DNA of 64,000 nucleotides. It comes from Patescibacteria group bacterium. GTDB taxonomy: Bacteria; Patescibacteriota; Patescibacteriia; Magasanikbacterales; GWA2-37-8. The notes below the pieces were generated by a model. It saw nothing but the letters and a program-made list of their open reading frames with translations, had not been told where the DNA came from and did not search any database. Numbering within the stretch: the first letter of the stretch is position 1; each line of letters opens with the position of its first letter. The position numbers and the translations under genes were made by a program. The DNA lies in the NCBI GenBank assembly GCA_022710645.1, contig JAKLGL010000002.1, positions 14,337 through 78,336 of the forward strand, given 5' to 3'. Shown here piece by piece: positions 4,557-61,839 of this stretch.

Positions 4557-5342
4557 TTATTGTTTCTTATTGAATCGTTTAAAATAATTATCTATCTCAT
4601 CCCTAAGTTCAATTCCTACTCGTTCAAAACAATCTAGTAAATCTTTATATGTACCCTTACCATCAAGAAAATCCCAAAATTCATCGGCTACTTTAAGCTC
4701 ATTATCTAAATCAAGCATTCCTCGCATTGTCCATCGAGTATAAGGTTCTGGTTCGTAGGGATTATATGGAATTGCGATAAATGTGTTTATGTCAGCTTTT
4801 GGATTATTTGCTAAAATCACAGCAACCCACTCAAGTAATGTTCTTTTAAACTCCTTGAATCCTCCGGCGTTAGGTTTTGCAGTTTTAATATCAAATAAAT
4901 AATAACCTCCGTCTTTTGACTCAAACATCAAATCCACTTTGGTAGGCTTTGCTTTTATCATCTCGCCAGATTGGCAAACTTTTCTTATTCGTTCTATTTC
5001 TTCTTTTTTGTTTGGTGATGTTGTCGCTGTCGTTAATCCGTCAATAATTTTCTGTATTTCTGCTTGTGCGCCAGTGCTTATCCGATCTCCGGCAGTAGCC
5101 TGACATGTAGCCATTTTGAAATTCTTTTGTGCTAGAGCCAAGCCAACTGGTTCAAAAATACTTGTTCCAAAATTAGTATTTAGAGAGTGGATAAATGAAT
5201 AAAGTGCAAGTCTATCTTTACCCAAAAGACGAGTATGGAAAGGCATCGAAGCCGGTTCCGGTTTGTAATTTTGGAATTTATTTCTGAGACTTGCTTTTAG
5301 TACATCCTCAACATTTTTAACTTGTTCTTTTGATAGTGCCAT
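4557..5342 (-). CDS. Type II restriction endonuclease, TdeIII-like family
   Basis: 261 aa. The N-terminal region (MPFHTRLLGKDRLALYSFIHSLNTNFGTSIFEPV) resembles the RE_TdeIII family from memory. Immediately downstream of, and co-oriented with, a DNA methyltransferase. Confidence 0.55.
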   Translation of the reverse strand: MALSKEQVKNVEDVLKASLRNKFQNYKPEPASMPFHTRLLGKDRLALYSFIHSLNTNFGTSIFEPVGLALAQKNFKMATCQATAGDRISTGAQAEIQKIIDGLTTATTSPNKKEEIERIRKVCQSGEMIKAKPTKVDLMFESKDGGYYLFDIKTAKPNAGGFKEFKRTLLEWVAVILANNPKADINTFIAIPYNPYEPEPYTRWTMRGMLDLDNELKVADEFWDFLDGKGTYKDLLDCFERVGIELRDEIDNYFKRFNKKQ

Positions 5343-5346
5343 AAAA

Positions 5347-6921
5347 TTATTTTGATTTAAAATGAAAAATTATTTCGGAATATGGATTCCTATCCCGTTC
5401 TGTTCGATTCAAAACAGGTCTTTTAAATTGATTTACAATCTTCATTCCAGATTTTTCAGCAATTTCTGGATAAAGATTATATTTATCGTTTGCAACAAGG
5501 AAAATATCGTAATTTTCCTTTAAATATTTCTTGCAATTATTTAGAACATCAGCTATTCCCTGAGCATATGATCTGCGAGCCTCCTGTCCTTGCCCTTTAT
5601 AAAGCGGACCGATTTCTAGATCATCCTTTCGTTTAAATCCGAGCAAATCGTAAGCATAAGCGTGTTGCTCGTGATAATCTATTTGTCCAACATAAGGAGG
5701 CGAGCAAAATATACCTGAGATTTTTTGTTTTTTAAGAATCTTTGCAAATTCCGGATTCTGCTTTTCAACTTTTTCAAAAATATCCACAGCTCTTGAATCA
5801 CCAGCAATAGCTGAGTAATGGACTGGTTTTCGCAATCTTTCAAATTCTTTTATTCTTGAAACAGTGTCGTAAGCATAGCGATTAAGCATTGTTTTGATTG
5901 AAAACAACGGCTTGCAAATCTTTTTATGCTTGTAGCAATAATATGTAGTTAATTGTGGTTCTTTTAGGGTAGCAAGATCACTATGTGTTGTAGCTCTGCA
6001 TGACCTAATTGTTCGACTTAAAATTAAAGCCAGAATCTTTTTTGTTTTTAAATCTTTCTCTTGTTTTATGGTATTGAAAACATGATCAATTTCTTTTCTC
6101 ACACTATCCATAAACCAAGTATCCAAAAATGACTCTGCTTTATCCTGTTTCAATTTTATTGAATATTTTTTAAGTAATTTTTGATAGGTAGGCAAAAACT
6201 CTTTTTCTTTCTCTGATGAAAACTTTTTTTCATCAAAATTTCCTTGGTTTATTTTGTATTTAAAATCTGAACCGGGAAAATGCTTGTTATTAAACTTTGC
6301 CAATTCTGCCAACAATTCAGTTTCAAACTCCTGGATTTTATTATCATGTTCAAAAGTATCAATAGCCGAAAGCATTTTCTTTATCGCCTTCTGTAAATAT
6401 TCATGATCGTAATTTGTTGCTTTACAACTTGCAATCATGCAATTAAATTCGGACACATCAATACCAACAGAATGAATACCCATTTCCAATGATTGGATAA
6501 TTGTTGTGCCAGAACCAAGAAAAGGGTCGAGAACTATATCACCATTTTTAAAATAAACTTCTTTTTTAAAATCATCTGTATGGGAATCAATAAAATATTC
6601 AACAAGTTGTGGAATATATTTCCCTTTATATGGATGTAATCGATGAACATGCTTTGTTGTATCTTTTTCTCTAAGATTATCGAAAGATAATGCCCAGTTT
6701 AAATCATCACCGAGTTGCTTCTTCCAATCAATCTCTCGTTTACCTTTCCATGATTCGTAATACTTTTTCAAATCATTCAAATCAATAAGGGTTGACCCAT
6801 TTTCTCCAAGTTTCTTAACCTTTCCATACTGAACAAGGTAAGAAATATTTGTTGGTGATACTTCTTTTTCAAGGTAATCCGTCGCCCATTTTGATGCTTC
6901 GTGTATTGTTACTAATGACAT
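5347..6921 (-). CDS. Type II DNA methyltransferase, amino-MTase (N4-cytosine or N6-adenine). Motif I is DPFLGSGTT and motif IV is SPPY.
   Basis: DPFLGSGTT (AdoMet binding) near residue 133 and FCSPPY near residue 400. The SPPY form favours N4C. Four-nt gap to the REase gene. Confidence 0.85.
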   Translation of the reverse strand: MSLVTIHEASKWATDYLEKEVSPTNISYLVQYGKVKKLGENGSTLIDLNDLKKYYESWKGKREIDWKKQLGDDLNWALSFDNLREKDTTKHVHRLHPYKGKYIPQLVEYFIDSHTDDFKKEVYFKNGDIVLDPFLGSGTTIIQSLEMGIHSVGIDVSEFNCMIASCKATNYDHEYLQKAIKKMLSAIDTFEHDNKIQEFETELLAELAKFNNKHFPGSDFKYKINQGNFDEKKFSSEKEKEFLPTYQKLLKKYSIKLKQDKAESFLDTWFMDSVRKEIDHVFNTIKQEKDLKTKKILALILSRTIRSCRATTHSDLATLKEPQLTTYYCYKHKKICKPLFSIKTMLNRYAYDTVSRIKEFERLRKPVHYSAIAGDSRAVDIFEKVEKQNPEFAKILKKQKISGIFCSPPYVGQIDYHEQHAYAYDLLGFKRKDDLEIGPLYKGQGQEARRSYAQGIADVLNNCKKYLKENYDIFLVANDKYNLYPEIAEKSGMKIVNQFKRPVLNRTERDRNPYSEIIFHFKSK

Positions 6922-33584: not shown

Positions 33585-33682
33585 GACTTTATAGACTTTA
33601 TGGACTTTATGGACTTTATGGACTTTATGGACTTTATGGACTTTATGGACTTTATGGACTTTATAGACTTTATGGACTTATA
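33585..33682. repeat. Tandem repeat of the 9-bp unit GGACTTTAT (about 11 copies). It fills the entire gap between the leuS stop and the comEC start.
   Basis: Directly visible: gactttata gactttatg gactttatg ... The array abuts the comEC ATG (33580-33582) and the leuS stop (33678-33680). Confidence 0.9.
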
Positions 33683-36179
33683 TAACTATATTCACCAACT
33701 TCCCTGGTACATAAATAACTTTCTTCGGCTCTTTTCCGTCTAACCATTTGATAATCTTGAAACTGCTTAAGGCCGCATTTTTTGCGTCTTCCTCCGTTAT
33801 TTCAGCGGTGGAAAAATCTATAGTATCACGAACTTTTCCATTAACCTGAATCACTAAACTTAAATTGTTTTCTTTGGACAATTCTTCATCATATTTCGGC
33901 CAAGCGCATTCCGCTAAAATATTTTTACCGCCGATATTATTCCATATTTCTTCGCACATATGGGGCGCAAAAGGAGAAAGCATCTTCAATAAAATTTCGT
34001 ATGCGTCTTTACAAATTTGGAGTTTTTTATTCATTTCATTGACAAGCTCCATCATTTTGGCGATAGCGGTGTTAAAACGCATATTATCAATATCATCTCC
34101 GACTTTTTTGAGAGTTTGATGAACGGTTTTAGACAAATCGTCTTTAAGCTTCTGATCTTTGGTAAGCGGAGGAATTATTTTTTCTTGTAAATTCCAAACG
34201 CGTTCCAAAAATCTTTTTACCCCTACCAAACCGTTGGTATCCCATACAGCGGCTTGATCAAAAGGACCCATAAACATAATGTAAGTACGGAAAGTATCAG
34301 CACCGTATTCCTTCACTACATCATCGGGATTGATAACATTTCCTTTACTCTTGCTCATTTTTTGTCCGTCAGAAGCCAAGATCATACCGTGGGCCGTGCG
34401 TTTTTTGTAAGGTTCACTGACCGGTACCAATCCCAAATCGTGTAAAAAGATATTCCAAAAACGAGAATACAACAGATGTAACACCACATGTTCCATCCCC
34501 CCATTATACCAATCAACCGGCATCCAATATTTCAATTTATCAGGAGAGGCAAATTGTTTATCGTTTTTAGGATCAATATAACGCAAAAAATACCAGGAAC
34601 TACCGGCCCAGTTAGGCATCGTGTCGGTTTCGCGTCGCGCCTTACTTCCGCAACGGGGACATTTCACTTCCACAAATTTCTTGACTTCGGACAGAGGCGA
34701 TTCTCCGTTGTCGGTCGGCTTGTAGTCTTTGACTTTCGGCAATTCAAGCGGTAATTCTTTCTCGGAAATAGCAATCCAACCAGGATTTAATTTTTCACCT
34801 TCATTGGTAAAATTTTTGGCATTAGCGCAAGCCTGACAATAAACCAACGGAATTGGTTCACCCCAATATCTTTGACGGGAAAAAACCCAATCGCGTAATT
34901 TATAATTTATTTTTTTACCACCGGCTTGAACTTCCGGACCGGACAACCATTCACAAATTTTTTCTTGCGCTTCTTTTGTTTTTAATCCATCCAAAAAATC
35001 GGAATTAATATTTTTCCCTTCTCCCGTAAAACACTCTTTTTCTTCTTCGGTTAAATTTTTATCATCCAAAGGTTCTAAAACTTTTTTTATCGGCAAACTG
35101 TATTTTTTAGCAAACTCAAAATCGCGTTCATCGTGCGCGGGTACGGCCATTACTATCCCGGTGCCGTAATTATTCAAAACATAATCGGCTACATATACCG
35201 GAATTGATTCGCCATTTACGGGATTTACCGCTTCCAACCCAGAAAGTTTGACACCAGTCTTATCTTTGTTTAGTTCGGTGCGTTCCAAGTCGGATTTTTT
35301 CTTACTATCATTGATATATTTTTCAATCTCATTCCAATTTTTGATATATTTTTTCCATGATTGTAATTTATCGTGTTCAGGTGCGATAGAAACATAGGTC
35401 ACACCAAACAAAGTATCGGCTCTGGTGGTAAACACTTCTATTTTTTCTGTAAGTATTCCTTCCTCTTCCGTTTCCACACCAAATAAAATACTAGCTCCAA
35501 TGCTTTTGCCTATCCAATTTTCCTGTTGAGTTTTTATTTGTGGTAAATAATCCACATCTTTGAGACCATCGAGTAATTTATCGGCATATTTGGTAATAGC
35601 CAACATCCATTGTTCTTTATTACGTTTTTCTACATCTCCACCACAACGTTCACATTTACCATTTACAACTTCTTCATTGGCCAAACCAATTTTACAACTT
35701 AAACACCAATTAATAGGCATATTGGTTTTGTAAGCCAAGCCGTGTTCAAAAAATTTCAAAAACAACCACTGAGTCCAACGATAATATTCCGGAGAAGATG
35801 TATCAACTACTCTATCCCAATCAAAAGAAAAACCAATCATCTTGAGTTGTTTGACGAAATTGGCAATATTTTCTTTTGTTACTTCTGCGGGTGGTCGTCC
35901 GGTTTTGATGGCATAATTTTCCGTCGGTAAACCAAAACTATCAAAGCCTATGGGAAATAAAACATTACAGCCGTCCATGCGTTTTTTACGCGACACTACA
36001 TCAAGCGCGGTATATGGTCGCGGATGACCGACATGCAAACCAGCACCGGATGGATATGGAAATTCCACCAAAGCATAATATTTGGGCTTCTCAGAAGTAT
36101 CGGGAGCATGAAAAACACTCTTTTCTTCCCAAACTTTCTGCCATTTTTTCTCAATTTTAGCAAAATTATATGATTTCAT
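33678..36179 (-). CDS. leuS: Leucyl-tRNA synthetase
   Basis: HVGH (HIGH) and KMSKS motifs; 833 aa. Confidence 0.95.
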   Translation of the reverse strand: MKSYNFAKIEKKWQKVWEEKSVFHAPDTSEKPKYYALVEFPYPSGAGLHVGHPRPYTALDVVSRKKRMDGCNVLFPIGFDSFGLPTENYAIKTGRPPAEVTKENIANFVKQLKMIGFSFDWDRVVDTSSPEYYRWTQWLFLKFFEHGLAYKTNMPINWCLSCKIGLANEEVVNGKCERCGGDVEKRNKEQWMLAITKYADKLLDGLKDVDYLPQIKTQQENWIGKSIGASILFGVETEEEGILTEKIEVFTTRADTLFGVTYVSIAPEHDKLQSWKKYIKNWNEIEKYINDSKKKSDLERTELNKDKTGVKLSGLEAVNPVNGESIPVYVADYVLNNYGTGIVMAVPAHDERDFEFAKKYSLPIKKVLEPLDDKNLTEEEKECFTGEGKNINSDFLDGLKTKEAQEKICEWLSGPEVQAGGKKINYKLRDWVFSRQRYWGEPIPLVYCQACANAKNFTNEGEKLNPGWIAISEKELPLELPKVKDYKPTDNGESPLSEVKKFVEVKCPRCGSKARRETDTMPNWAGSSWYFLRYIDPKNDKQFASPDKLKYWMPVDWYNGGMEHVVLHLLYSRFWNIFLHDLGLVPVSEPYKKRTAHGMILASDGQKMSKSKGNVINPDDVVKEYGADTFRTYIMFMGPFDQAAVWDTNGLVGVKRFLERVWNLQEKIIPPLTKDQKLKDDLSKTVHQTLKKVGDDIDNMRFNTAIAKMMELVNEMNKKLQICKDAYEILLKMLSPFAPHMCEEIWNNIGGKNILAECAWPKYDEELSKENNLSLVIQVNGKVRDTIDFSTAEITEEDAKNAALSSFKIIKWLDGKEPKKVIYVPGKLVNIVI

Positions 36180-36265
36180 AGAATAATTATGATTTTTGTT
36201 TACTATTTGATATTTTGCCTTAATTTTAAGAAAAAAGCAAGGTATGGCTAATTTTGGCTAAATTA

Positions 36266-36294
36266 TTGACAAAATCGCTAAAATATGCTATATT
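36266..36294 (+). promoter_or_regulatory. Consensus sigma70 promoter: TTGACA, 17 nt spacer, TATATT, with a TGc extended -10
   Basis: Hexamers at 36266-36271 and 36289-36294. A GGAGG RBS at 36422 precedes the ATG at 36433. Confidence 0.5.
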
Positions 36295-36432
36295 ATATTG
36301 TTATATTCCTTACTTGGGATATAATATAAATAGATAAAATTTGTTCTTTAACAATTGAAAGTTAGAAAATATAAGGAAAATTTATATATAGGGATATACA
36401 GCATTACAAACTTCTCATAATGGAGGAACATC

Positions 36433-38283
36433 ATGAGAAACTTTTTCGCCTTTGTGATCGCAGTTGCGATCACCCTTGCCTTCGTTGCTTGCGACAATGG
36501 TATCAGTCCGGTTGATAACACTAACATCACGGACAATGACAACGCCGTAAACGACGATACTACTGATGATGTCACGGACAATGACACTGTTACCTTGAAA
36601 CCGTTCACTATTAAGGGTGCGGTTGCCAAAGGCCCGCTCGTAAAAGGTTCGGCTCTGTATTTCACGATTCTTTCTGAAATTGGTGAACAGGAAGGGCTTA
36701 TCCTGAATGCTACCACCGATGATGACCTCGGCCGGTTTTCTTACAAAGTGACCGCTGATGTTTCCCCCAAAGTGGTTGGGAAAGTTTGCAAAATCAGTGC
36801 CACCGGTTATTTTTACGATGAGATCGGTGACAGATTGAGCAATGCGCCCGTCACTTTGGAAGCCCTGTTCCGGATTACGGACACAGAAGTGCAGGATGCC
36901 AGAATAAATCTTCTCACTCATATGACAGTCAAGCGTACGCTTGCGTTGATGAGTGATGGGACAATGCTTTTTGAGGATGCTCAGGCGCAAGCCGAAAGTG
37001 AACTCATCGCGGAAATGGGAGTTTTCTATGCTCCCTCGGATGAGGATCCTAAGAAAAAAGCCATTGAGATGGATCTGACCAAAGATCCCTATCCGTTGGC
37101 CATCGCTTGCATCTTCGGACAGAGTGCCTATAACATCGCCAAAGACAGTGCTGAATTTTATGGGAAGTATCAACAGCTTCTCAATGATACTGCTGCTGAT
37201 CTTTCTGATGGCGTGCTGACCGATAAGACAAAAGAAATCATCGTTGCTGGTGAACAGGCCCTAGATGCTGACGCATGCGCCGCTAACCTCAAGAATTATC
37301 TTGAGGAAAAAACCGGTGAAACTCAGACTCTACCCAACCCCAACGAATCCGTTGACACCAACAAAGATGGCGTTCCCAATGTCTCTGATCCGGATGTTGA
37401 TGGAGACGGGGTGCCAAACGAAGATGATTGTGTGATGGGAAAAACGGATTATAAGTTAGTTTTTGTAGCCAAAAGTGTTTTTTGCATATCAAAAAAAGAC
37501 AATACTTGGTCTTGTTACACTCTCTCACTTGGAAATGCTTATGGATGGGGAAATGAAACATGGAAAAATGATTTTTCCATGGTTGCTAGTGGCTCTTCAC
37601 ACTTTTGTGGTATAGATACGGAAAATATTTTATGGTGTTGGGGGCACATTGATGAATCAAGCCCTAATTACCAATCTACACCGATTGAAAATACTGGTAT
37701 ATGGAAAAACTTATGGGCCGGTCAAAATCGTTTATGTTCTATTTCGGATATGGATACTCTCTATTGTTGGCAGGGCTTAATGATTGGAGAAGGTATAAAA
37801 GCTAATGATGACACAAACTGGTCAAATTTATCACTCGGAAATGACAAATTCTATGCCATTAAAAGCGATGGGACACTCTGGGGTTGGAACTTCGAAGAAA
37901 TTCCTGTCCAAATCGGTACAGATCTCTGGAAATTCTTTTCGAACACTTCCCTTTATGCCGTCAAGACAGACGGCACACTCTGGTATGTCTCAGATTTTCT
38001 TTCTCCTGTTCAAGTCGGCACTGACACGGACTGGGAGTCTGTTTACGGCACTTGTGCTGTTAAGACAGATAATTCACTTTGGTGCTGGAATGAATCTGAT
38101 ATGACCCCGGCAACCAAAATTGATTCAATCGGTTGGTCCTGTGGACAATGGCAATTTATCTCTCACTACAAGAAGGTTGATGTAGAAACACAAGAACTTC
38201 TTTGTGGTCTCAAAACAGATGGTTCGCTTTGGTGTCTGAAGGACGGAGATCTTATCTACATTGAAAACCTCCCGCTAGAATAA
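36433..38283 (+). CDS. Lipoprotein with thrombospondin-type Ca-binding repeats and C-terminal RCC1-like beta-propeller repeats
   Basis: Signal peptide plus LAFVAC lipobox. DPDVDGDGVPNEDD motif. Four repeats of the form xAxKTDGTLWxW. Confidence 0.8.
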   Translation: MRNFFAFVIAVAITLAFVACDNGISPVDNTNITDNDNAVNDDTTDDVTDNDTVTLKPFTIKGAVAKGPLVKGSALYFTILSEIGEQEGLILNATTDDDLGRFSYKVTADVSPKVVGKVCKISATGYFYDEIGDRLSNAPVTLEALFRITDTEVQDARINLLTHMTVKRTLALMSDGTMLFEDAQAQAESELIAEMGVFYAPSDEDPKKKAIEMDLTKDPYPLAIACIFGQSAYNIAKDSAEFYGKYQQLLNDTAADLSDGVLTDKTKEIIVAGEQALDADACAANLKNYLEEKTGETQTLPNPNESVDTNKDGVPNVSDPDVDGDGVPNEDDCVMGKTDYKLVFVAKSVFCISKKDNTWSCYTLSLGNAYGWGNETWKNDFSMVASGSSHFCGIDTENILWCWGHIDESSPNYQSTPIENTGIWKNLWAGQNRLCSISDMDTLYCWQGLMIGEGIKANDDTNWSNLSLGNDKFYAIKSDGTLWGWNFEEIPVQIGTDLWKFFSNTSLYAVKTDGTLWYVSDFLSPVQVGTDTDWESVYGTCAVKTDNSLWCWNESDMTPATKIDSIGWSCGQWQFISHYKKVDVETQELLCGLKTDGSLWCLKDGDLIYIENLPLE

Positions 38284-38302
38284 TCTAACTTTCAATTCTC
38301 TC

Positions 38303-38332
38303 GCCCGTTCACTTCTGTGGACGGGCTTTTTT
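38303..38332 (+). terminator. Rho-independent terminator (GCCCGTTCACTTCTGTGGACGGGC plus TTTTTT)
   Basis: Stem-loop and U-run directly after the stop at 38283. Confidence 0.65.
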
Positions 38333-38398
38333 GTAAACATTAATCTTTTGCACGAATATACACAAATGAACTTTGAATATTGAATATTAGCTATTAAA

Positions 38399-38428
38399 AC
38401 ATCCCGATTTTATATCGGGATGTTTTTT
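38399..38428. terminator. Hairpin terminator ATCCCGATTTTATATCGGGAT plus T-run. It shares the 16-mer TCCCGATTTTATATCG with the hairpin at 15148.
   Basis: Perfect 8-bp stem; sits between convergent genes. Confidence 0.5.
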
Positions 38429-38488
38429 GATTTATTTATCTCTTTGTATTTTTATCACTTTATCAACATATAATCTTATCTCTTTCTC

Positions 38489-41400
38489 TTATGGGGTTGG
38501 TTCTTCAGCTGGTGGAGTCTCTTCTTCAGCTGGTGGTGTTGGTTCTTCAACTGGTGGTGTTGGTTCTTCAACTGGTGGGGTTGTGGTGACTATTTCTTCA
38601 GTAGTAGATGGTGTCTCAACCATCCCTTCTTCCCCTCCTTGTAAAGGAGGGGTCATCACCTCACCCTCGCCTCCTTCTTGAGGAGGGGCTGGGGGTGGTG
38701 TTACTACAAACTTTCTCTTTGCAATTACCATCCAATCAAAAGTAGAAGAAGATATACCACCATTTAATTCTTTAACCACAAAACCTGTGGCTAATTTTTC
38801 TTTGACATATATGCCACCACATTCACCTGTCAGAGTAATATTAACTTTGAGCGGCTGAGTTTCGTCAATGAGTTCGCAAGTATCAGTATCAAAATTGATA
38901 ATTGCTTCGCCATTTATGAGTTCTGATGAACTAGAAAATACAAATTCCGAATATGGTGATTGCATAGCAAACATTTCTTTGGTGTTACCATCGCTGGTTT
39001 GGATCCTGGTGATAAATTGACCATTTTCATCAATCGCCCATTTATTATCAACACCTGTAATATTTTTTACATTTAACAGTGCATAATTTTGTAAATCTAG
39101 ATCTCCGCCAGAATAAGTTAGACTTCCACCAGATTGTTGAACACTTAAAGTTGTAGAAACCGCTTCGCGTAAAGCCTCAATTTCCGCTTGTTGAACCTTG
39201 GCTACTTCTATTAAAAATGCCGTTAATTTTGGATAATCAACTGATTTATAGGTAGTACTTACATCAGTATAAACAAGTTCAGGTAAAACTAATTCTAATT
39301 CTTGAGCCACAACACCAATCTGTCTTCTATCATCATTTGTAGGATAAGTAGAAGTGTTCCAATAATAATATATTCCCCTTAAATTAGTTAAAGCTTCTAA
39401 AACATTTTTTTCAGCATTGATAGAAATAATTTCTTTTTTAAAACGAACATCTGATTGTGTACACGACCCAAAACTACTATATAATATGCCTGAATTATCA
39501 ACACAAACTTCATGAGTTCCGTTTCCACTTAAGTTAGTTATTTGAGCTGAGCCATTTATATAAACACCTAATTGACCAGACGCACCCGCATCGACAACTA
39601 ATCTCCAATTGGAAACATTTACAGCTCCGATACCTACTCTGGTAGCTGAGGTACCCGAACCACGGACATGCAAAGCCGGATTACTTGTTTGTCCAGAACC
39701 ACTAAAACCTATTCCTAAACTACTACTTATACTATTTGTATAATATTGACCCAAAGAAAATCCATAATTTATATTATTACTAACTTTTGCATTGTCGCCA
39801 ATTGCATAAGAAGATGTATTGTTCATTCCGATTGTTGCACCAGCTCCAAGAGCATAAGAAAAAACAGATCCTTCATCTACTATAGATTGCCAACCCAAGG
39901 CATAACTTGAACCACCTCTGCTCTTTGCTCCTTTTCCTATAGCAACTGCATGATTAACAAAATTGGGAAAACCTAACACAGTATAATAACCAGCCCAAGC
40001 CTCTTCACCAAAAGCAAATGAAGTAACACCCCCAGCTATTGCTTTATAACCAAAAGCGAAAGAATTATTACTTACTACATTACCAAATAAACCTCCACTT
40101 AAAATCTGGCTTTCTTCACCGCCGGCAAAAGAATAATATGCTAAATTTGTAGTTGTAACATTTTTACCAAAAGCTATTGAGTAGGCTCCACCAGCGTAAC
40201 TTCCTGTGCCAAGAGCAAAAGAACTTGTACCCATAGCAGTATTATTATTACCTATAGAAAAACTGCCTTGTTTTCCAAGAGCCGCAGAACCATAACCCAT
40301 TGCTATACTGCCATCATTATTAATACTAAAAACATTTATACCAGTTGAAGAAGCAAAACTAACTATAGATGAATTTCCATTTTCTGTATCTCCTACCACT
40401 CTAAAAGTTGAATTTAGACTATTCTGGCTACCCACAGCAAAAGAACCTCTTATATAAGAATTATTTGTACCTGGATGACCGACCAAAGAAACTCCAATAT
40501 TGTTTGTCGTGTCATATAGTTCTAACACACCCCACCATTTATTTCCAATATCTTGATTCATAACAAGAGCACCGCCAACACTAGATGTATTGCCAGTTAA
40601 AAGAATGCCGTCATAACTATTCATAGTATGGACATGTAATTTGGTCCAGGCAGTTGTCGTCCCAATCCCCACATTTCCATTATTATCAATTGTCATTTTT
40701 TCCGTTAAACTCCCTTCATTATTAGTATAAAAAGCTAAACGACCGGTGGAAGAGCTGGAACCATTCAAAAGACCGGCAATACTAGCAACTGTACTAGAAC
40801 TATTAGAACTAATATTTCCATAAGGATCGACACTAGAATTTATTATGGAAATAAAATCAATACCTGGTCCCATACCATCGGCAGAGCTGACGTTTCTTCT
40901 AGCCGAAACTTTAAGAGCCGTATATTTAGAATTACCGCTTGCACTTCTTTCAAAAATCGGAGCTTTATCATAAGACGTGGCTACAGTATGCAAAATTCCA
41001 CTTGGACTAGTTGTGCCAATACCAATATTTCCACCATCTTCAATGAATAAACGTGTAACTCCGTGTGTTCTAAAACCAATAGGTAAATAGCTACCCAATA
41101 CAGCATCGTTTGCAATATAATGAGCAAAACCTGTATAACCACTTGAAGATACGTTAGAAGAAATTGATAAAACTCCCGTACTACTAACAATGTCAATTGA
41201 ACCGCCTTCAACGTGTAATTTTGCCAAAGGTGTAGAAGTTCCGATACCCACCCTTCCGTTTTCTAATATATTTAAATTATTTGATCCTTCTCCGTTCGCT
41301 TGAGTATAAAAACCCAATCTTGTTCCGTTTTGTTTTATAGACCAAGTACTTGTGCCGATATTTAAATTATCCACCCAAAGAGCATTCCATCTAGTCGTAG

Positions 41401-42925
41401 AAGCGCCGAGATTATAAACACTCATATTTCCTGTTCCTCCAGTCATATCCGGAATAACGTTGCGTAAAGTAGAAGTGCCGGCTACAGATAATAAAGTTAA
41501 AGGACTAACTGTCCCAATCCCAACATTACCACCCATAATTGCCATTGTGTTTGAATTTGTAATTGTATTATAAGCATCACTTAAAGAAATACCGAAAGAA
41601 TCATTGCCGCTAATTGTCATTCTTCTTCCAAAAATCGTAGAATAATTACCAGAAATTGAACTATCTTCAGCACTTCCAATAAAGGAAAAACCGCCTGAAA
41701 TATTATTTGATCCACCATTTGCAATAAAAGATTTTGAACCAGATACTGTGTTATAAGTTCCACCCCCTATAGAAGAAGCTTCTGATCCAGATTCAATTTT
41801 ATTTTGATAACCACCAGCAATAAATGAAAATGTACCTGTGGTGCTATTTCCATTTCCAAATGCAGCGCTCCAATTACCAGCAACCACATTAGCATTCATC
41901 GCAATACCATATTTATTTGTTATAATTTTAAAAATACTACTCGTCACCCAATTTTCTCCTCCATTATTTACCAAAAGCTGTCCAATATCACCACTGGGCA
42001 ATCCCCCGCCCAAATCACTCCAAGCCGTTCCGTTGTAATATCTAAACTTGTGGGATGTTGTATTGTAATAAAGATGACCGTCTATATTATTAACACTATC
42101 CAATTCCATATTTGAGCCCAATCTCGGGATCAAAATACCACGTTGCGTTGAAGAAACTTCAAACGCCACGGATGTTGTGGAAACATTTATGTTATGGCCG
42201 ATTGCAACCTGTCCGGAATTGAAGACGACGAAAGAAGAAGTGGCTACGCCGTTTTTATTAAAATGTATAAGATCACCAGTACCTAATTGTATTCCTCTCA
42301 ACAATGCACTCGAAGTAAGATAAGTTGAAGTTATGCCAGTAATAAAATTGGAAACATTCGGAACACAAAAACCTACAGAACCGTTACACCCACTATAAGT
42401 TCCCGGTAAACCCTCATCAGTTGTACATGAAGCGCCGTCGTGAATTTCACAGGTCAAACCGTCGGCATTACAATCATAATATCCGGTTTTACAAACACTG
42501 CAATTTGTCGCTCCTGGTTGAGAAGCCCACTTACCGGCCACACATTCGGTTACACGATTCAAGGTATTGCAAGATGATGAAGGACTACACCAAAAACTTC
42601 CGCTATTATCACAATACGGAGCTGCCGCATCCAAATAATCACAATCCACAACATAACCACCATAAGTTCCACCTCCGTTATTATTTGTAGAATTTACCCC
42701 AGGAACCAAACCAAATAACGTTGAAGAATTATACCACTGAGCCACACTGCCACTTAAACCGCACATTACTTCGCCTGGTCCAGCCAATTGACCACTATAC
42801 GTAGTAGGGCATTGTTTAGGATCAGCTTTCCAATTTGCCGCTTTGGAAATATCAACAAAAAATACAAAAGCACCTAACACAAACAAAACAATCATTATTG
42901 TTTTTATCAAAAAGTCTATTCTCAT
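38489..42925 (-). CDS. Giant secreted fibre/adhesin-like protein (about 1480 aa): signal anchor, Cys-rich N-terminal module, GIGT-repeat region, peptidase S74 intramolecular-chaperone autoprocessing domain, Pro/Glu-rich C-terminal tail
   Basis: S74 chaperone signature SDVRFKKEIISINAEKNVLEALTNLRGIYYYWN...QIGVVAQELELVLPELV. Repeated (N/R)VGIGT motifs. C-terminal PPVEEPTPP repeats. Start chosen at MRIDFLIKTIMIV (ATG 42923-42925), which is paralogous to the N-terminus of the neighbouring gene. Confidence 0.8.
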   Translation of the reverse strand: MRIDFLIKTIMIVLFVLGAFVFFVDISKAANWKADPKQCPTTYSGQLAGPGEVMCGLSGSVAQWYNSSTLFGLVPGVNSTNNNGGGTYGGYVVDCDYLDAAAPYCDNSGSFWCSPSSSCNTLNRVTECVAGKWASQPGATNCSVCKTGYYDCNADGLTCEIHDGASCTTDEGLPGTYSGCNGSVGFCVPNVSNFITGITSTYLTSSALLRGIQLGTGDLIHFNKNGVATSSFVVFNSGQVAIGHNINVSTTSVAFEVSSTQRGILIPRLGSNMELDSVNNIDGHLYYNTTSHKFRYYNGTAWSDLGGGLPSGDIGQLLVNNGGENWVTSSIFKIITNKYGIAMNANVVAGNWSAAFGNGNSTTGTFSFIAGGYQNKIESGSEASSIGGGTYNTVSGSKSFIANGGSNNISGGFSFIGSAEDSSISGNYSTIFGRRMTISGNDSFGISLSDAYNTITNSNTMAIMGGNVGIGTVSPLTLLSVAGTSTLRNVIPDMTGGTGNMSVYNLGASTTRWNALWVDNLNIGTSTWSIKQNGTRLGFYTQANGEGSNNLNILENGRVGIGTSTPLAKLHVEGGSIDIVSSTGVLSISSNVSSSGYTGFAHYIANDAVLGSYLPIGFRTHGVTRLFIEDGGNIGIGTTSPSGILHTVATSYDKAPIFERSASGNSKYTALKVSARRNVSSADGMGPGIDFISIINSSVDPYGNISSNSSSTVASIAGLLNGSSSSTGRLAFYTNNEGSLTEKMTIDNNGNVGIGTTTAWTKLHVHTMNSYDGILLTGNTSSVGGALVMNQDIGNKWWGVLELYDTTNNIGVSLVGHPGTNNSYIRGSFAVGSQNSLNSTFRVVGDTENGNSSIVSFASSTGINVFSINNDGSIAMGYGSAALGKQGSFSIGNNNTAMGTSSFALGTGSYAGGAYSIAFGKNVTTTNLAYYSFAGGEESQILSGGLFGNVVSNNSFAFGYKAIAGGVTSFAFGEEAWAGYYTVLGFPNFVNHAVAIGKGAKSRGGSSYALGWQSIVDEGSVFSYALGAGATIGMNNTSSYAIGDNAKVSNNINYGFSLGQYYTNSISSSLGIGFSGSGQTSNPALHVRGSGTSATRVGIGAVNVSNWRLVVDAGASGQLGVYINGSAQITNLSGNGTHEVCVDNSGILYSSFGSCTQSDVRFKKEIISINAEKNVLEALTNLRGIYYYWNTSTYPTNDDRRQIGVVAQELELVLPELVYTDVSTTYKSVDYPKLTAFLIEVAKVQQAEIEALREAVSTTLSVQQSGGSLTYSGGDLDLQNYALLNVKNITGVDNKWAIDENGQFITRIQTSDGNTKEMFAMQSPYSEFVFSSSSELINGEAIINFDTDTCELIDETQPLKVNITLTGECGGIYVKEKLATGFVVKELNGGISSSTFDWMVIAKRKFVVTPPPAPPQEGGEGEVMTPPLQGGEEGMVETPSTTEEIVTTTPPVEEPTPPVEEPTPPAEEETPPAEEPTP

Positions 42926-42954
42926 GGTTGTTTTGGATCGTATTCTCATATATT

Positions 42955-45594
42955 TTATTTGCAACAACTTATAGCTTTGGAGCTCACACATGTGGAAAGC
43001 CAGCCTTGTCCTCCACCGACAGTGCCCGTATATTCCCAAAAAGCTCCTAGATAATTTAAAGATGAAGTGGTATATCCCCCGCAATCATTGGCATAAGCTG
43101 TATAACCAGGCGGGCCTTCGGCAATCCAAGCTTGAGGTAATCCGGAAAATTTACTAAAATTATTTACGCGAATGAAAGAAATTATTTCTCCACTAAAACA
43201 GAAATGATAACCTGGGTAATAATAATTACAAATAGCATTGGCTGCTTGGTATCCTTTTAAAATTCCAGAACTAAAATCTCCATTAGTGGTTATAGGCGTT
43301 GTAGTAACATCGGTTATCGGGACAACCCAACCCAAAGTCGGATCAAAACAATTTGTTCCATTAACATCACAATATAGATTCGATCTTATTCCTGAATTAT
43401 GAGTCGAAGTTGCTTGAAAAGCGACTTGGGCCGTGAATGTAGCGTTGGTCACATTCAAATTTGTAATTGTAGAAGATGTGATTGTAGCATTGGCAATTGT
43501 CGAAGTTCCGATATTTGCAGTAATGATAGTGGAGCTAACGATGGTCGCTTCGTCGGCAAATAGATTTTTAAACCATCCAGTCAACCAACGTAATAATGAA
43601 TTACCCAAACTATACGTTTCCGTAATTTCCGGCATAACATTGTGCATGGTCGATGTTTGAGTTATTAACATCTGACCGTCAACAGTCAAGGTCGCGCCAG
43701 GCGTGGTAGTACCTATACCAACATTTCCATCAAACGAAACTATTTTATTTTGATACCACCTAATAGTAGTACTATTATATGCATAACCTAAGTAGCCATA
43801 ATTGAAAGTATTATCATTTCCACGAGCTCCTATCTGATAAATAGTAGTGGAATCATCTTCTTGAAAATTTAACATAGCCCTAGCCCAACTTCCGATAGAT
43901 GGTGAATCATCTTTTCTAACAATGACACTTCCATTATTTAATAAAACACTGGTAAAATTACCATCAACTTCCAAAGAAGCTCTGGGGTTAACTGTGTTTA
44001 TACCAACATATCCACTAGTAGATGAAACAAAAATCGCCGACGTAGCTGTAAGAACATTTCCGTTTGAAGCATAATAGAGAATTTGTCCTCTCGTGCCGGA
44101 AGGAATCATTCCAAGTGATGAAGTGTTAGTCCATTCCGGATAGCCAGAGGAACTAACCATGAGAATTTGCCTTTGAACTCCGGCATTTCCGTTAAATCTC
44201 AAAACGCCGTTTTCAATATGCATCCCTCCTTCAACCATTAACATCGAATCCCAGCCGTCATCGCCGGTAGTTGAACCGATAGCTAAAGTACTGCTAGCAA
44301 AAAAAGAATGACCACTGGCTGCAAGCATAGTGTGCGGTTGAGAAGGATCAAAATTTTCATAATAAAGACCTACAGCCCCGTTGGACGTAACTCCGGTAAA
44401 ATCCATATTTCCAAAACCGCCTAATAGATTTCCATTGGATCCATAAATTCCAAAACCGCCATAAGTACCAACATCCATTTGCACATTAAGCGCATAATTT
44501 AAAGTCGTGGTATTAATACCCACTTTCCCATCCGCACCCCAAACTCCCAACGGAAAAGTTGTTGTCATATTAAACGTGTGTTGACCAGACCAAGAAAAAT
44601 CTTGCGTTGTACTGACAGTAAATTCATATCCACTCAAATTCAATCCGCTTCCGGCAGTGTACACTCCCCCGCCAGTATTTAATTTCGTCTCACCCCAATA
44701 AAGATCACCGTTGTAATTATAAAATTGATTAGGCGCGGACGAAGTGGCAGAGGTTGAAGTCATAAATACTGTGCCGTCATTTTTCACTATAAAAATATTT
44801 GACGAAGTCGCATTGCCAAAATTTATCAAATCGCCTTCACCATATTGTCTGCCCCAAAGCAGAGGTGAGGTGGTGGCAAATATAGCTTCAATACCAGTCA
44901 CAAAAGTTGAAGTGGCAATAATACACTGACAAGAGCCGTTATAAACACCTTGCAAACCTCCAGCTCCGGTACAAGTTGTCACTCCCACATTAACTTCGCA
45001 ACCATCACCGGCTCCAGGACCGGAGGCATTACAATCAACATAATTCGTATCGCATTGGCAAGTACAAGAAGCACCGATATTATTATTGGCTCCGACAGAA
45101 CAATTGGTAGAATTGGTTTGCACTTCGCAAACACTCGGCGTCGCATCACAATCTTGATAACCGGAAATACAATTATTTCCGCAAGCCGAAGTTCCCCAAA
45201 CATTTTCCGTACACACGGTTTCTTTGTGATTTGTTCCATAACAAGTTTCGTTTCGATCGCACCAAAAGTTTCCGTTATTATCGCAACGCGCTCCAGCTCC
45301 GTCGTCAGTAGCAAAACAATTTATCAAATAACCTCCGGAAAACGAACTTGAATAATTAACGTTGGAAGTAGAAGAAACCGATGGTGGAATCAAGCCGGCA
45401 GTGGTAAAACATTGAGCCGTACCGGACAAATCACCGCAAATATTTTGCGGTGTGCAGTTTTGTCCTGGAAATGACGGACTGGTAGCCGGACATAAAGCGG
45501 GATTAGTAACCCATAATTCCGCAGCTTTGGTAACATCAACAAAAAATATAAACAAACCAAACACAAACAACACGATCATTATCGTTTTCATCAT
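42955..45594 (-). CDS. Secreted Cys-rich fibre/adhesin-like protein (about 880 aa), paralog of the giant protein at the N-terminus and of the 411-aa protein at the C-terminus
   Basis: N-terminal MMKTIMIVLFVFGLFIFFVDVTKA signal anchor. Shared motif TGWFKNLFADEATIVSSTIITANIGTSTI. C-terminal domain ending ...GAFWE...CCK. Confidence 0.8.
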   Translation of the reverse strand: MMKTIMIVLFVFGLFIFFVDVTKAAELWVTNPALCPATSPSFPGQNCTPQNICGDLSGTAQCFTTAGLIPPSVSSTSNVNYSSSFSGGYLINCFATDDGAGARCDNNGNFWCDRNETCYGTNHKETVCTENVWGTSACGNNCISGYQDCDATPSVCEVQTNSTNCSVGANNNIGASCTCQCDTNYVDCNASGPGAGDGCEVNVGVTTCTGAGGLQGVYNGSCQCIIATSTFVTGIEAIFATTSPLLWGRQYGEGDLINFGNATSSNIFIVKNDGTVFMTSTSATSSAPNQFYNYNGDLYWGETKLNTGGGVYTAGSGLNLSGYEFTVSTTQDFSWSGQHTFNMTTTFPLGVWGADGKVGINTTTLNYALNVQMDVGTYGGFGIYGSNGNLLGGFGNMDFTGVTSNGAVGLYYENFDPSQPHTMLAASGHSFFASSTLAIGSTTGDDGWDSMLMVEGGMHIENGVLRFNGNAGVQRQILMVSSSGYPEWTNTSSLGMIPSGTRGQILYYASNGNVLTATSAIFVSSTSGYVGINTVNPRASLEVDGNFTSVLLNNGSVIVRKDDSPSIGSWARAMLNFQEDDSTTIYQIGARGNDNTFNYGYLGYAYNSTTIRWYQNKIVSFDGNVGIGTTTPGATLTVDGQMLITQTSTMHNVMPEITETYSLGNSLLRWLTGWFKNLFADEATIVSSTIITANIGTSTIANATITSSTITNLNVTNATFTAQVAFQATSTHNSGIRSNLYCDVNGTNCFDPTLGWVVPITDVTTTPITTNGDFSSGILKGYQAANAICNYYYPGYHFCFSGEIISFIRVNNFSKFSGLPQAWIAEGPPGYTAYANDCGGYTTSSLNYLGAFWEYTGTVGGGQGWLSTCVSSKAISCCK

Positions 45595-53971: not shown

Positions 53972-54043
53972 GGCCTCATCGTCTAATGGTTAGGACACCA
54001 CGCTTTCAATGTGGTAATAGGGGTTCGATTCCCCTTGGGGCTA
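53972..54043 (+). tRNA. tRNA-Glu (anticodon UUC), no encoded CCA
   Basis: Cloverleaf: acceptor GGCCTCA/TGGGGCT (two G.U pairs), D-arm GTCT..AGGAC, anticodon loop CTTTCAA, T-loop GGGGTTCGATTCCCC. Confidence 0.8.
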
Positions 54044-54194
54044 CGGGCAAAATAAAGAACCAGCGTTTTAGCTGGTTTTTTGTTTTGTCCGTATTTGTCC
54101 GGGGAATCGAAGGGTGCGAATGAGCAAGGAGCGATAGCGACATAGCGAGATGACGAAAATATATCAGTGACATATTTTCGGGCACCCCGGACGC

Positions 54195-54211
54195 GATTCC
54201 CCTTGGGGCTA
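54195..54211 (+). repeat. Exact 17-nt copy of the tRNA-Glu 3' end (GATTCCCCTTGGGGCTA), 168 nt downstream of the original. The intervening 54044-54194 is a GC-richer hairpin-rich segment.
   Basis: Exact match between 54027-54043 and 54195-54211. Confidence 0.85.
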
Positions 54212-54293
54212 CAAATAATAAAAAGATTTGATTTCAAACCAAGTCTTTTTATTATATTAACAAATACTTTATTCTAGAGTATTATATCCCCAT

Positions 54294-60093: not shown

Positions 60094-60104
60094 ATAAAAT
60101 CAGA

Positions 60105-60137
60105 TAAAAAAATACCCGTCAAAAGCGGGTATTTTTG
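60105..60137 (+). terminator. Rho-independent terminator (AATACCCGTCAAAAGCGGGTATT plus T-run)
   Basis: Stem-loop and U-run. Confidence 0.65.
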
Positions 60138-60206
60138 TTACTTATCCCCAAGCATGATTTTTGCTAAAATGAGACAAAAAAACGCCAAAAATACGTTTTA
60201 AAATCA

Positions 60207-60235
60207 TTTAAAAATAGACAAAAATATGCTATAAT
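60207..60235 (+). promoter_or_regulatory. Promoter with a strong extended -10 (TGcTATAAT) and a weak -35 (TTTAAA)
   Basis: TATAAT at 60230-60235 preceded by TGC; 17-nt spacing to TTTAAA. Confidence 0.45.
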
Positions 60236-60239
60236 ACTT

Positions 60240-60848
60240 CATAGCTAACAAAAGCTTAGAGTCTGATTTTGCCTGGGGGCACTGTCGGACCCACTCGTTC
60301 TTTAACCCCCGAAAAAATGTATCGTTAGTATAAGGTAGAATTGTCTTTTCGTCTTACCAAATCTTTTAATATATTTTCTCTTTCCGGTTTTTTTCTTTTG
60401 TTTTTTGTAACTTTTAATCGATTATCGGATATCGGACAAGTTCCGAAAAACAATTCTTCTTTTTTTCTTTATGTTGAGAACTAACTAAAAAGTTCTCGAC
60501 TGAAGCTCGTCAGGTTTTGGTTGTAAACTAATCAGAAGTTTACGCCCTAAACCCGTAAGGTTTTCAGTTGGTATCGCTGTGGCGATTCCCGATTGAAACT
60601 CGCGAGTTTTCGGGTTATTCCGTAAAGATACAGTTGTATTTCTGCAAAAAATACCGACACCTCAATTGTCGAAAAATTGAGGGTTTGCACCAAGAGCGCG
60701 GTTTGATTGATTTGATTCTTGCGTCTATTTTGACTGCAATGAATCTTTTCTTTTAACCGCCACTCCCAAGTCCAAACCTTAAAGTGTTTTTTCTTTCTTT
60801 ATCATCGATACTTTTTTACCCGGCGCTTTCGCCGGTTTTTTGTTTTTT
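60240..60848 (+). ncRNA. Candidate roughly 600 nt structured non-coding RNA of unknown class
   Basis: No ORF longer than 10 codons on the + strand. Upstream promoter; terminal intrinsic terminator at 60820-60848 (CCGGCGCTTTCGCCGG plus U-run). Multiple strong internal hairpins, including AAACTCGCGAGTTT and CCTCAATTgtcgaaaAATTGAGG. Confidence 0.3.
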
Positions 60849-60852
60849 AAAT

Positions 60853-60892
60853 ATAATAAAAAATCCCGTCTCTTCAGAGAGAAGGACGGGAA
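60853..60892 (-). terminator. Rho-independent terminator for the minus-strand gene 60910-61527 (TCCCGTCTCTTCAGAGAGAAGGACGGGA)
   Basis: Stem-loop with a U-run on the minus strand. Confidence 0.55.
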
Positions 60893-60909
60893 ATTTAAAA
60901 AATAATTAA

Positions 60910-61527
60910 TTAAGGTTTTACTTCGATTTGCGCCGCTCCCCCACCATCACAAGTAATATAACTTTTTCCCAATTTATCGGCAGTGACTATGGTATAACTG
61001 TAAGCTCCTATGTTATACAACCTGCTCATAAAAACTATTTTTCTTGTTTTATTATCTCTATTATCAAGCATAATTTTTGCACCTTTCTTTACCACCAAAG
61101 AACCGGGACTACCATGACAATTTAAAAATTGAAAATAATAACCAGAAGTTTGATAGGAATTTCTGGCTTTCAAATAATCACTAGTGGCCGATAAAGAAGT
61201 AGAGGAAGTTTTAACAGTAGAGGCTTTTTTAATAACAGTCGTCTTTTTAATCGCCGTACCAGTAGTAGTGGTTACACTGTCTATTGTACTGGTAACAACA
61301 TCATCAACAACCTGAGTTGAACTGCTATTATTCCAAAAATCATAAGGGGTATCTTCTATTACTTTATTTTCACTTTTAAAAGTATGGAGGAGCCAATAAA
61401 CCAAAGAAATTGCTACCAAAATAAAAACCAAAACTATGGTAAAATAAGGTCTTTTATCGGGATTTTTAGAGTCGTTTTCCGGATTCGAATTGGAGCCCGA
61501 CAGATTGTTTAAATTGTTTAATTCCAT
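60910..61527 (-). CDS. Hypothetical TM-anchored Ser/Thr-rich secreted protein (205 aa)
   Basis: N-terminal TM; S/T-rich linker. Confidence 0.55.
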   Translation of the reverse strand: MELNNLNNLSGSNSNPENDSKNPDKRPYFTIVLVFILVAISLVYWLLHTFKSENKVIEDTPYDFWNNSSSTQVVDDVVTSTIDSVTTTTGTAIKKTTVIKKASTVKTSSTSLSATSDYLKARNSYQTSGYYFQFLNCHGSPGSLVVKKGAKIMLDNRDNKTRKIVFMSRLYNIGAYSYTIVTADKLGKSYITCDGGGAAQIEVKP

Positions 61528-61638: not shown

Positions 61639-61712
61639 GTCAGGGTAGCTCAGTTGGTGAGAGCGAAGGATTCATAACCCTTAGGTCGGGAGTTCGACTC
61701 TCCCCCCTGACA
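61639..61712 (+). tRNA. tRNA with anticodon CAU (elongator Met or lysidine-Ile2), no encoded CCA
   Basis: Acceptor GTCAGGG/CCCTGAC, D-arm TAGCTCAGTTGGTGAGAGC, anticodon loop TTCATAA, T-loop GGGAGTTCGACTCTCCC. G1-C72 is paired, so it is not an initiator. Confidence 0.8.
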
Positions 61713-61835
61713 CTTCTGTCCACCCCGTCGCCCCGGTCTCGGACACCTGCGGTTTCCGACGGTCGCTAGCGCTCCCTGCCTTCCACCATCGGGGTGTCCA
61801 GCCGTCCGCCTACGGCGTCCGTATTTTGTAAACTG
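61713..61835 (+). other. GC-rich (about 65-70%) highly self-complementary element between tRNA-CAU and the tsaD start, in an otherwise roughly 35% GC locus
   Basis: Base composition and complementary segments (GGACACC/GGTGTCC, CCCCG/CGGGG, CCGACGG/CCGTC) read directly. Confidence 0.5.
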
Positions 61836-61839
61836 TTTT

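Follow-up and report, generated by a model that had tools for sequence, protein, structure and literature searches.

The window analysed here is a stretch of 64,000 nucleotides (nt) of contig JAKLGL010000002.1 (GenBank assembly GCA_022710645.1) from a Patescibacteria group bacterium of the Magasanikbacterales, and all coordinates refer to it. Positions 60094-60909 form an 816-bp gap between two genes, and this gap holds the element described here, a predicted non-coding RNA (ncRNA) of about 600 nt on the plus strand. The gap is flanked on one side by a plus-strand gene for a 414-amino acid (aa) DUF4349-like protein, which is preceded by the gene of a sigma factor of the extracytoplasmic function type (sigma-70 r2/r4), and on the other side by a convergent gene for a 205-aa hypothetical protein without a Pfam family, the end of which is at 60910. 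The further flanks are made up of the housekeeping genes tsaD, mutM and dnaE. A tRNA-Met gene lies about 800 nt downstream of the RNA. The window was also assigned to a Candidatus Magasanikbacteria genome (GCA_035454185.1), and JGI sample 3300010429 contains the same contig.

The corresponding loci of relatives, referred to by L numbers where they have to be told apart, were retrieved by exact look-ups of proteins homologous to the 205-aa neighbour. The order of the syntenic loci is dnaE, mutM, tsaD, tRNA-Met, the 205-aa gene, the gap, the DUF4349-like gene and the sigma factor gene, and a gap of 756-858 bp without an open reading frame (ORF) is located at the same spot in every syntenic relative retrieved. 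In four lineages the gap aligns over its full length, with 65-84% identity. For two lineages further removed, blastn is limited to the 5' part, but the multiple alignment reaches the terminator. Nine distinct homologous sequences, delimited by the -10 element and the U-run, were compared, eight of them 600-617 nt and one 527 nt long. They originate from digester, sludge and groundwater metagenomes and represent about three sub-clades of one narrow Magasanikbacteria clade. Their identity to the RNA of the window (59.6-86.3%) is in the range of that of the flanking coding genes (62-84% at the DNA level), which argues against an unconstrained spacer. Three loci of the Magasanikbacteria type (L017, L018 and L019; GenBank CAYUIA01, CAYRYH01 and CAYWMO01) are deposited in records titled "uncultured Gammaproteobacteria bacterium", a title that is probably a mislabel.

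Signals for transcription from an own promoter to an own terminator were located by consensus scans. The promoter (60207-60235, plus strand) consists of a weak -35-like TTTAAA (60207-60212), a 17-nt spacer and the extended -10 element TGCTATAAT (60227-60235). TGnTATAAT is unchanged in all seven relatives aligned in alignment A1, and the -35 element is not conserved. With a 5' end inferred from the -10 element (±3 nt) and a 3' end from the U-run, the predicted RNA extends from 60242 to 60845; it is AU-rich, with a GC content of 35%. It ends in an intrinsic terminator (60820-60841, plus strand) composed of the hairpin CCGGCG-CUUU-CGCCGG (60820-60835) and the following UUUUUU (TTTTTTGTTTTTT). In the nine sequences this hairpin (helix 24) has 98% of its alignment cells paired; its stem, like the U-run, is invariant, and at the top pair G-C is replaced by A-U on both sides. 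The upstream 414-aa gene has an intrinsic terminator of its own (60108-60136, plus strand), found by a terminator scan and matched by a hairpin with an altered stem at the same spot in all relatives of A1, and is thereby set apart from the promoter of the RNA. The terminator of the convergent 205-aa gene (60856-60890, minus strand) lies outside the RNA; it includes the hairpin CCCGTC..GACGGG (60865-60890) and, on the plus strand, an A-run, and relatives carry a hairpin with an altered stem there (A1 columns ~925-960). The scans returned 11 promoter-like matches where 6.4 were expected and three terminator-like matches where 1.4 were expected, such matches being common by chance in AT-rich DNA. 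Taken together, the promoter and the terminator, both apart from those of the neighbouring genes, point to an independent ncRNA gene.

A conserved DnaA-box-like sequence, TTATCCCC, is situated at 60142-60149 on the plus strand and corresponds to the invariant columns T49-C56 of A1; two relatives (L011 and L014) have TTATCCAC. Its distance upstream of the -10 element of the RNA is about 80 nt in the window and about 30 nt in L011 and L014. Judged from its sequence and position, it is a possible DnaA box or a possible site for another regulator of the RNA promoter.

The 5' domain of the RNA begins with the hairpin P1 (60261-60290), in which GUCUGAU..UG pairs with CA..GUCGGAC around the invariant loop CC(U/A)GGGGG. 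P1 forms in nine of nine sequences, with stems as different as GUUCUGCUAUG/CAUAGCUAGAAC, AUUCGACU/AGUUGGAU and GAGUU.UCU/AGA.AACUC. It is followed by the block GUUCUUUAACCCCCGAAAAAA (60297-60317), which is unchanged in all nine, and the whole 5' block, CC(A/U)GGGGGCA ... GUUCYUUAWCCCCCGAAAAAA, is the most conserved part of the RNA throughout the set. Within it, CCCCC (60306-60310, C5) can pair with the GGGGG of the P1 loop (60275-60279) to give a candidate pseudoknot, PK1, with five G-C pairs in every sequence. One nt after C5 starts the long-range closing helix H2 (60312-60324 with 60806-60817), which ends 2 nt before the terminator stem and is obtained with RNAduplex in all nine sequences. 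The distal part of H2 reads GUAUCG/CGAUAC in the window, GAAUAAG/CUUAUUC in L008, UGAUCA/UGAUCA in L010 and GAUCAG/CUGAUC in L014.

Inside H2 the first element is the H4 arm (60337-60457), formed by AGAAUUGU.UUUU (60337-60349) and AAAA.ACAAUUCU (60446-60457); the duplex is present in nine of nine sequences, with exchanges of A-U for G-C. In the window the H4 loop comprises 97 nt (60350-60445), is rich in U and C and poor in G, and includes a small hairpin, H5 (60433-60445). Across the nine homologues the loop is 79-108 nt long with 66-88% pyrimidine and 4-13% G; its sequence varies and its character is constant. The central region (60473-60644) follows with the hairpins H6 (60473-60500), H7 (60501-60512), H8 (60522-60544), H9 (60550-60562), H10 (60565-60595), H11 (60596-60609), H12 (60611-60622) and H13 (60631-60644), each of which recurs at its anchored position in the other lineages with an altered stem. 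Two copies of the motif YCGNYUGAAR are found in this region, each after a hairpin. H6-H9 are deleted in L014 and are therefore dispensable in at least one lineage.

The 3' domain starts with a predicted H-type pseudoknot, PK2 (60655-60681), with stem S1 CGACA/UGUCG (60655-59 : 60667-71), stem S2 CUCAAU/AUUGAG (60661-66 : 60676-81) and an A-rich linker. Both stems show changes on both sides of a pair, with few events each: in S1 at pairs 22:37 (GC in seven sequences, AU in two) and 26:36 (CG in six, UG in two, UA in one), and in S2 at pairs 32:49 (AU in five, GC in four) and 33:48 (AU in eight, GC in one). A long irregular arm (60682-60778), recognised from covariation and per-sequence folds, consists of H15 (GGUUUG/CAAACC), H15c (GCGGUU/AACCGC) and H16 (GAUUC-UUGC-GUC / GAC-GCAA-GAAUC; conserved sequence CUUGCGUC..UGACUGCAAG). 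Three of the five pairs of H15 have both-side changes and 97.8% of its cells are paired. The pyrimidine-rich 3' strand of the arm is likewise paired and not free.

The whole fold was evaluated with a 131-pair model built from the sequence of the window alone and projected on an unadjusted MAFFT alignment; a hand-fitted, helix-only alignment was kept out of the pair counting, since the test would then be circular. In this model 47 of the 131 pairs have changes on both sides, compared with 25.4 ± 3.1 in shuffled alignments (0 of 500 reach 47) and 13-20 with slid partners, and 80.1% of the cells are paired. For the 3' domain including PK2 the corresponding values are 10 of 23 pairs, 3.4 ± 1.3 (0 of 500), 0-2 and 95.2%. 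RNAalifold gave both-side changes in 25 of 65 pairs for the full alignment and in 11 of 26 pairs each for the central domain and the 3' domain. For the helices that are out of register between sequences (P1, H2b, H10 and H13), each sequence was folded alone between conserved anchors, and the same hairpins and the same closing helix were obtained in every lineage from different sequences. The plus strand of the window has a folding z-score of -6.6 to -7.1, and all nine homologues score between -4.3 and -8.4, as against -1.3 ± 2.5 in 25 control windows of equal length from the same 64 kb. One of the control windows, 36001-36604, itself reaches z = -5.1; ORFs of the two strands overlap there (33678-36179, minus strand; 36433-38283, plus strand). 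On the plus strand 88 alignment cells are G-U and 56 are A-C, an excess in agreement with the orientation given by promoter and terminator. Compensatory substitutions among nine sequences from about three sub-clades thus uphold the structure.

Before this comparison the element had been proposed from the letters alone as a candidate novel structured ncRNA of some 600 nt (the sequence-only reading). Its extended -10 promoter (TGcTATAAT), its terminator CCGGCG-CTTT-CGCCGG with the T-run behind it and the separate minus-strand terminator of the neighbouring gene are all in place. The same is true of the perfect internal hairpins AAACTCG/CGAGTTT (60596-60609), CCTCAATT/AATTGAGG (60660-60683) and GAGAACT/AGTTCTC (60476-60497), and the comparative check for covariation that it had suggested came out in favour of the helices. 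Only its statement on ORFs, treated below, did not hold. Conservation, transcription signals, structure, and the lack of a conserved ORF and of an Rfam family all agree with the proposal, and the element is very probably a real, structured and independently transcribed ncRNA of a new family.

Several observations weigh against this fold or against the function proposed for it below. Good folding is seen for the minus strand, too (z = -3.0 to -7.4), so that the strand assignment rests on the promoter, the terminator and the modest G-U excess. P1, H2b, H10, H13 and H15c score poorly on the sequence-only alignment and draw their support mainly from per-sequence folding; a covariance model of the 5' domain left a one-column register shift of P1 between sub-clades uncorrected, and P1 is therefore seen in the per-sequence folds only. 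PK1 never varies and is consequently neither supported nor refuted by covariation. With nine sequences in about three sub-clades, the covariation as a whole comes from few independent events. The family is very narrow, the sigma/DUF4349 pairs next in distance having no such RNA beside them. As regards a scaffold role, the RNA has no linked partner gene, and the 205-aa gene, the single neighbour that could have been one, is dispensable.

The conserved 5' domain invites a reading in which the RNA is a sensor, the 5' hairpin, PK1 and the A-rich tail forming an aptamer for a ligand or signal that controls the remaining 500 nt in trans. This is the part most conserved, in nine of nine sequences, and its layout of an H-type pseudoknot and an A-rich strand is that of several small riboswitch aptamers, such as preQ1-II and SAM-II. 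In addition, the invariant GUUC is an alternative pairing partner for the 3' strand of P1, and a distance of 1 nt separates the C5 strand from the closing helix H2. However, neither an ORF nor an expression platform follows downstream, the terminator 500 nt later looks constitutive, no riboswitch model of Rfam matches, and the invariance of the block leaves covariation silent on either conformer. A sensor is considered improbable, although it is the main alternative to the scaffold role proposed below.

Rfam 15 gave no match for the RNA at the gathering score over the whole window. With lax filters and E <= 10, slices of ~700-1000 nt from the window, L008 and L011 returned only noise resembling the terminators of small RNAs, and at E <= 1 no family matched in five loci. 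These negatives cover the models of OLE, ROOL, GOLLD, HEARO, raiA, RNase P, transfer-messenger RNA (tmRNA), signal recognition particle (SRP) RNA, 6S RNA and the riboswitches, and thus include all the large families that the sequence-only reading had listed for a scan. Its failure to see signatures of tmRNA, RNase P or SRP RNA was borne out: ARAGORN reported neither tmRNA nor tRNA in the region, nothing was found with Rfam, and the single tmRNA match (alpha_tmRNA, 8.4 bits) is on the wrong strand. For HEARO, the omega RNA of IscB, there is neither a model match nor an adjacent IscB/HNH ORF. No such RNA is described in the literature searched on ncRNAs from Magasanikbacteria and the Candidate Phyla Radiation (CPR), the sole relevant report being one on diverged RNase P RNAs (PMC8172020).

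The RNA is nevertheless of a known kind, being a new family among the large orphan structured ncRNAs of bacteria without detectable relatives. It resembles OLE RNA (RF01071) in its length of about 600 nt, its ornate multi-helix fold, its highly conserved unpaired nucleotides, its stand-alone gene, its anaerobe-rich habitats and the lack of a known biochemical function. OLE works as a ribonucleoprotein (PMC12054373, PMC9723947). In contrast to OLE, the present RNA does not match the OLE model at E <= 10, belongs to CPR hosts and not to Bacillota, has no neighbour like the membrane protein gene oapA and is far narrower in distribution. ROOL (~580 nt) and GOLLD (~800 nt) are also large orphan structured RNAs with pseudoknots. 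They are often encoded near tRNA genes, and here the tRNA-Met gene lies ~800 nt downstream in the window and a tRNA gene 146 nt downstream in L018. Unlike these two, the present RNA is chromosomal and single-copy in fixed synteny, has no phage context and matches neither model. ROOL and GOLLD form homo-oligomeric cages (PMC12286853). The raiA motif RNA is an abundant stand-alone structured ncRNA whose function is not known and which has a promoter and a terminator of its own (PMC12968392, PMC10861870). The present RNA shares the stand-alone gene, the structure and the signals of raiA; raiA, however, measures ~200 nt and occurs in >2700 species of Bacillota and Actinomycetota, whereas the present RNA is three times longer, is restricted to one clade and does not match the raiA model. 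With 6S RNA and RNAs of the CsrB type it is comparable in its proposed action only, as a stable RNA titrating proteins in trans, and this is an analogy; it has neither the rod and bubble of 6S RNA nor repeated GGA motifs, its candidate platform being the pyrimidine-rich loop.

A highly diverged version of a known housekeeping or large RNA, most plausibly an RNase P RNA with large helix insertions, is very unlikely. The universal blocks of RNase P RNA are GGAAAGUCC, AGGGUGAAA and ACAGAAnCCGGCUUA, and by eye neither these blocks nor the CR-I and CR-V sequences appear in the invariant columns. In favour of this identity, no RNase P RNA, tmRNA, SRP RNA or 6S RNA was found within the 64-kb window (Rfam, gathering score), and standard thresholds can miss RNase P RNAs in related organisms of the CPR: for 10 of 35 complete genomes from this group they were found only below the noise cut-off of the model, many with extended or missing helices (PMC8172020). 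Those RNAs were, however, recovered once the thresholds were lowered, whereas for the present RNA three homologues searched at E <= 10 gave no match. With its 600 nt it also far exceeds these RNAs in length and is AU-rich, with 35% GC, and its occurrence in one small clade is the wrong distribution for an essential universal RNA.

The distribution was examined with a motif from the most conserved part, GGGGGC ... GTTCNTTANCCCCCGAA. Among 185,579 species genomes (GTDB) it occurs in five, all of the same clade, and in JGI and ENA metagenomes in six true loci, again of this clade, together with two chance matches. It is absent from 2.9 million viral contigs (IMG/VR), and blastn found 0 matches in phage genomes (INPHARED) and plasmids (PLSDB). 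Searches with blastn and with an nhmmer profile of the family against the window and all loci detected no paralogues, so that each locus has a single copy. The RNA is missing from the loci of more distant DUF4349-like homologues (47% and 34% identity), which are the next sigma/DUF4349 pairs, and distant homologues of the 205-aa protein have another gene context without the RNA. In L018 (6441-7264) the 205-aa gene is lost and the RNA is retained, which makes this gene dispensable; the tRNA, in the same orientation as the RNA, and then tsaD follow directly. By these sequence searches the RNA family is real but narrow, being confined to one clade of Candidatus Magasanikbacteria.

A young and narrow family is also what might be expected of a leftover, that is, a decayed gene, a mobile-element remnant, or a long 3' untranslated region or spacer without a function of its own, and the nearby spots flanking tRNA genes are hot-spots for small insertions. 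Against this, CPR genomes are compact, and a useless gap of 800 bp is not likely to persist in all nine lineages; the identity equals that of coding genes, compensatory changes are present, the RNA is single-copy in fixed synteny without repeats or paralogues, and it has a conserved promoter of its own behind an upstream gene with its own terminator. There is very little likelihood that the RNA is such a remnant.

The sequence-only reading had stated that no ORF longer than a few codons exists on either strand. This was not confirmed: ORFs with TTG or GTG starts comprise 47 and 62 codons on the plus strand and 42 and 48 codons on the minus strand, and stop-free frames of up to 83 codons occur in the region. 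None of the ORFs is ATG-initiated. The same reading had named, as evidence that would count against it, a small-protein gene with a non-ATG start that is conserved at the codon level. The occurrence of TTG and GTG ORFs of 41-62 codons on both strands would allow for one or more such proteins, as would a stop-free frame from CTTGCGTC..TGACTGCAAG to the terminator that recurs in several relatives. In the nine homologues, however, the longest frames differ in strand, phase, position and length, and no ORF has a common frame or position. The frame from CTTGCGTC is the only recurrent one; it has no start codon, crosses the hairpin of the terminator and does not stay open in the window. Reassignment of each of the three stop codons, one at a time, opens no long conserved frame. 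Indels among the homologues are frequent and not multiples of three, and substitutions pair across helices and show no periodicity. The chance that small proteins account for the conservation is very small. Very improbable as well is an element acting at the DNA level, such as a replication origin or protein-binding region, for which the AT-rich gap and the conserved DnaA-box-like TTATCC(C/A)C at its 5' edge might speak, but which is contradicted by the single box of this type in the gap, by a cumulative GC skew without a turn and by helix-preserving double substitutions, promoter and terminator, all of them signatures of RNA.

On balance, the observations are best explained by a stand-alone gene for a structured ncRNA of about 600 nt, representing a new family and having a role as a protein scaffold or decoy; this explanation as a whole is favoured, not certain. 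The RNA would be transcribed from its extended -10 promoter and end at its intrinsic terminator. The G5 loop of the 5' hairpin would pair with the C5 block (PK1) beside the long-range helix by which the remainder of the molecule is closed, and the closed part would contain the arm with the pyrimidine loop, about eight short hairpins, PK2 and the long irregular 3' arm. Acting in trans, such an RNA could serve as a stable scaffold or decoy for proteins, with the invariant loops and junctions as specific binding sites and the pyrimidine-rich H4 loop as a landing platform for single-strand RNA-binding proteins of the S1, Rho, Csp or KH type. Invariant unpaired blocks, pseudoknots with A-rich strands and a closed core are typical of RNAs that have a tertiary structure and bind partners, and OB-fold and KH proteins (S1, Rho, cold-shock proteins) bind sequences of the kind seen in the long, G-poor pyrimidine loop, which is conserved in composition and length only. 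A scaffold or decoy is therefore the best guess. The mode of action would be analogous to that of other large orphan RNAs of bacteria, which function as ribonucleoproteins. Taken by itself, the protein-binding mechanism is a tentative proposal argued from analogy, and it may well be wrong; catalysis or self-assembly, as in ROOL, GOLLD and OLE, may apply instead.

Two further ideas on the function were rejected. CCUCC-like words, which could have indicated an anti-Shine-Dalgarno mimic or sponge, occur in some homologues, not in the window, and the pyrimidine stretches of the 3' region are strands of stems. The UAGCU word, taken as a sign of tRNA mimicry by the 5' domain, is present in one sub-clade only.

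Other elements were observed around the locus and elsewhere in the window. Directly between tsaD and the tRNA-Met gene (61639-61713) lies a 125-nt GC-rich stretch (61714-61838; ~60% GC against 35% in the genome). L006 and L010 share it with 91-93% identity, compared with ~64-86% for the remainder of these loci, and it is absent from L008, L013 and L014, which have an 89-aa GIY-YIG ORF instead. The stretch is strongly foldable, has no Rfam match at E <= 10 and has the appearance of a small structured element that is mobile or was recently transferred. In L008 three to four copies of a palindrome resembling repetitive extragenic palindromic sequences (GGGACGCTTAGCGTCCC and variants; 5564-5703) lie upstream of the GIY-YIG ORF, and L011 has five tandem units of TTTATAGAC (5272-5370). 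On this comparison of sequences the spot between tRNA-Met and tsaD is a hot-spot of insertions and repeats, different in every lineage.

At another tRNA gene of the window, that of tRNA-Glu, the terminal 19 nt (GATTCCCCTTGGGGCTAC, 54026-54044) recur at 54194-54212. Enclosed by the two copies are a hairpin resembling a terminator and another that is GC-rich, GTCCGGGG..CACCCCGGAC, and no folding z-score of the contig is more extreme than that of the surrounding 604 nt (-14.9). This att-like duplication suggests a small integrated or decayed element. Words like TTATCCACA (<=1 mismatch) number 36 in the whole window, compared with 19 ± 4 expected, and are densest at 38140-39503; this cluster falls mostly within an ORF of 1531 aa (38489-43084, minus strand) that bears 21-bp tandem repeats. 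The enrichment is probably an effect of coding repeats and not the mark of an origin.

Bacterial ncRNAs longer than ~500 nt with complex conserved folds are rare. Those found so far (rRNAs, RNase P RNA, group I and II introns, OLE, GOLLD and ROOL) have all proved to be ribozymes, ribonucleoproteins or RNA assemblies that had not been expected, and none is known to be specific to the CPR or is reported as such in the literature searched. The narrow distribution restricts both the generality of the finding and the strength of the comparative evidence. As a compact and well-delimited element with two testable pseudoknots, the RNA is suited to chemical probing, cryo-electron microscopy and pull-downs. 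The genomes of CPR cells are tiny, their ribosomes unusual and their RNase P RNAs diverged. An RNA of 600 nt is costly in a genome of ~1 Mb, which argues for an important lineage-specific function. It is possible, at somewhat less than even chances, that this is the first class of large ornate RNAs specific to the CPR/Patescibacteria, a new ribonucleoprotein or ribozyme-like RNA in which the two pseudoknots and the invariant junctions would form the active or binding core, the pyrimidine loop would recruit single-strand RNA-binding factors, and the job would be one that is done elsewhere by proteins or not at all. If this is true, these episymbionts with minimal genomes use an RNA for a job that other bacteria give to proteins or lack.

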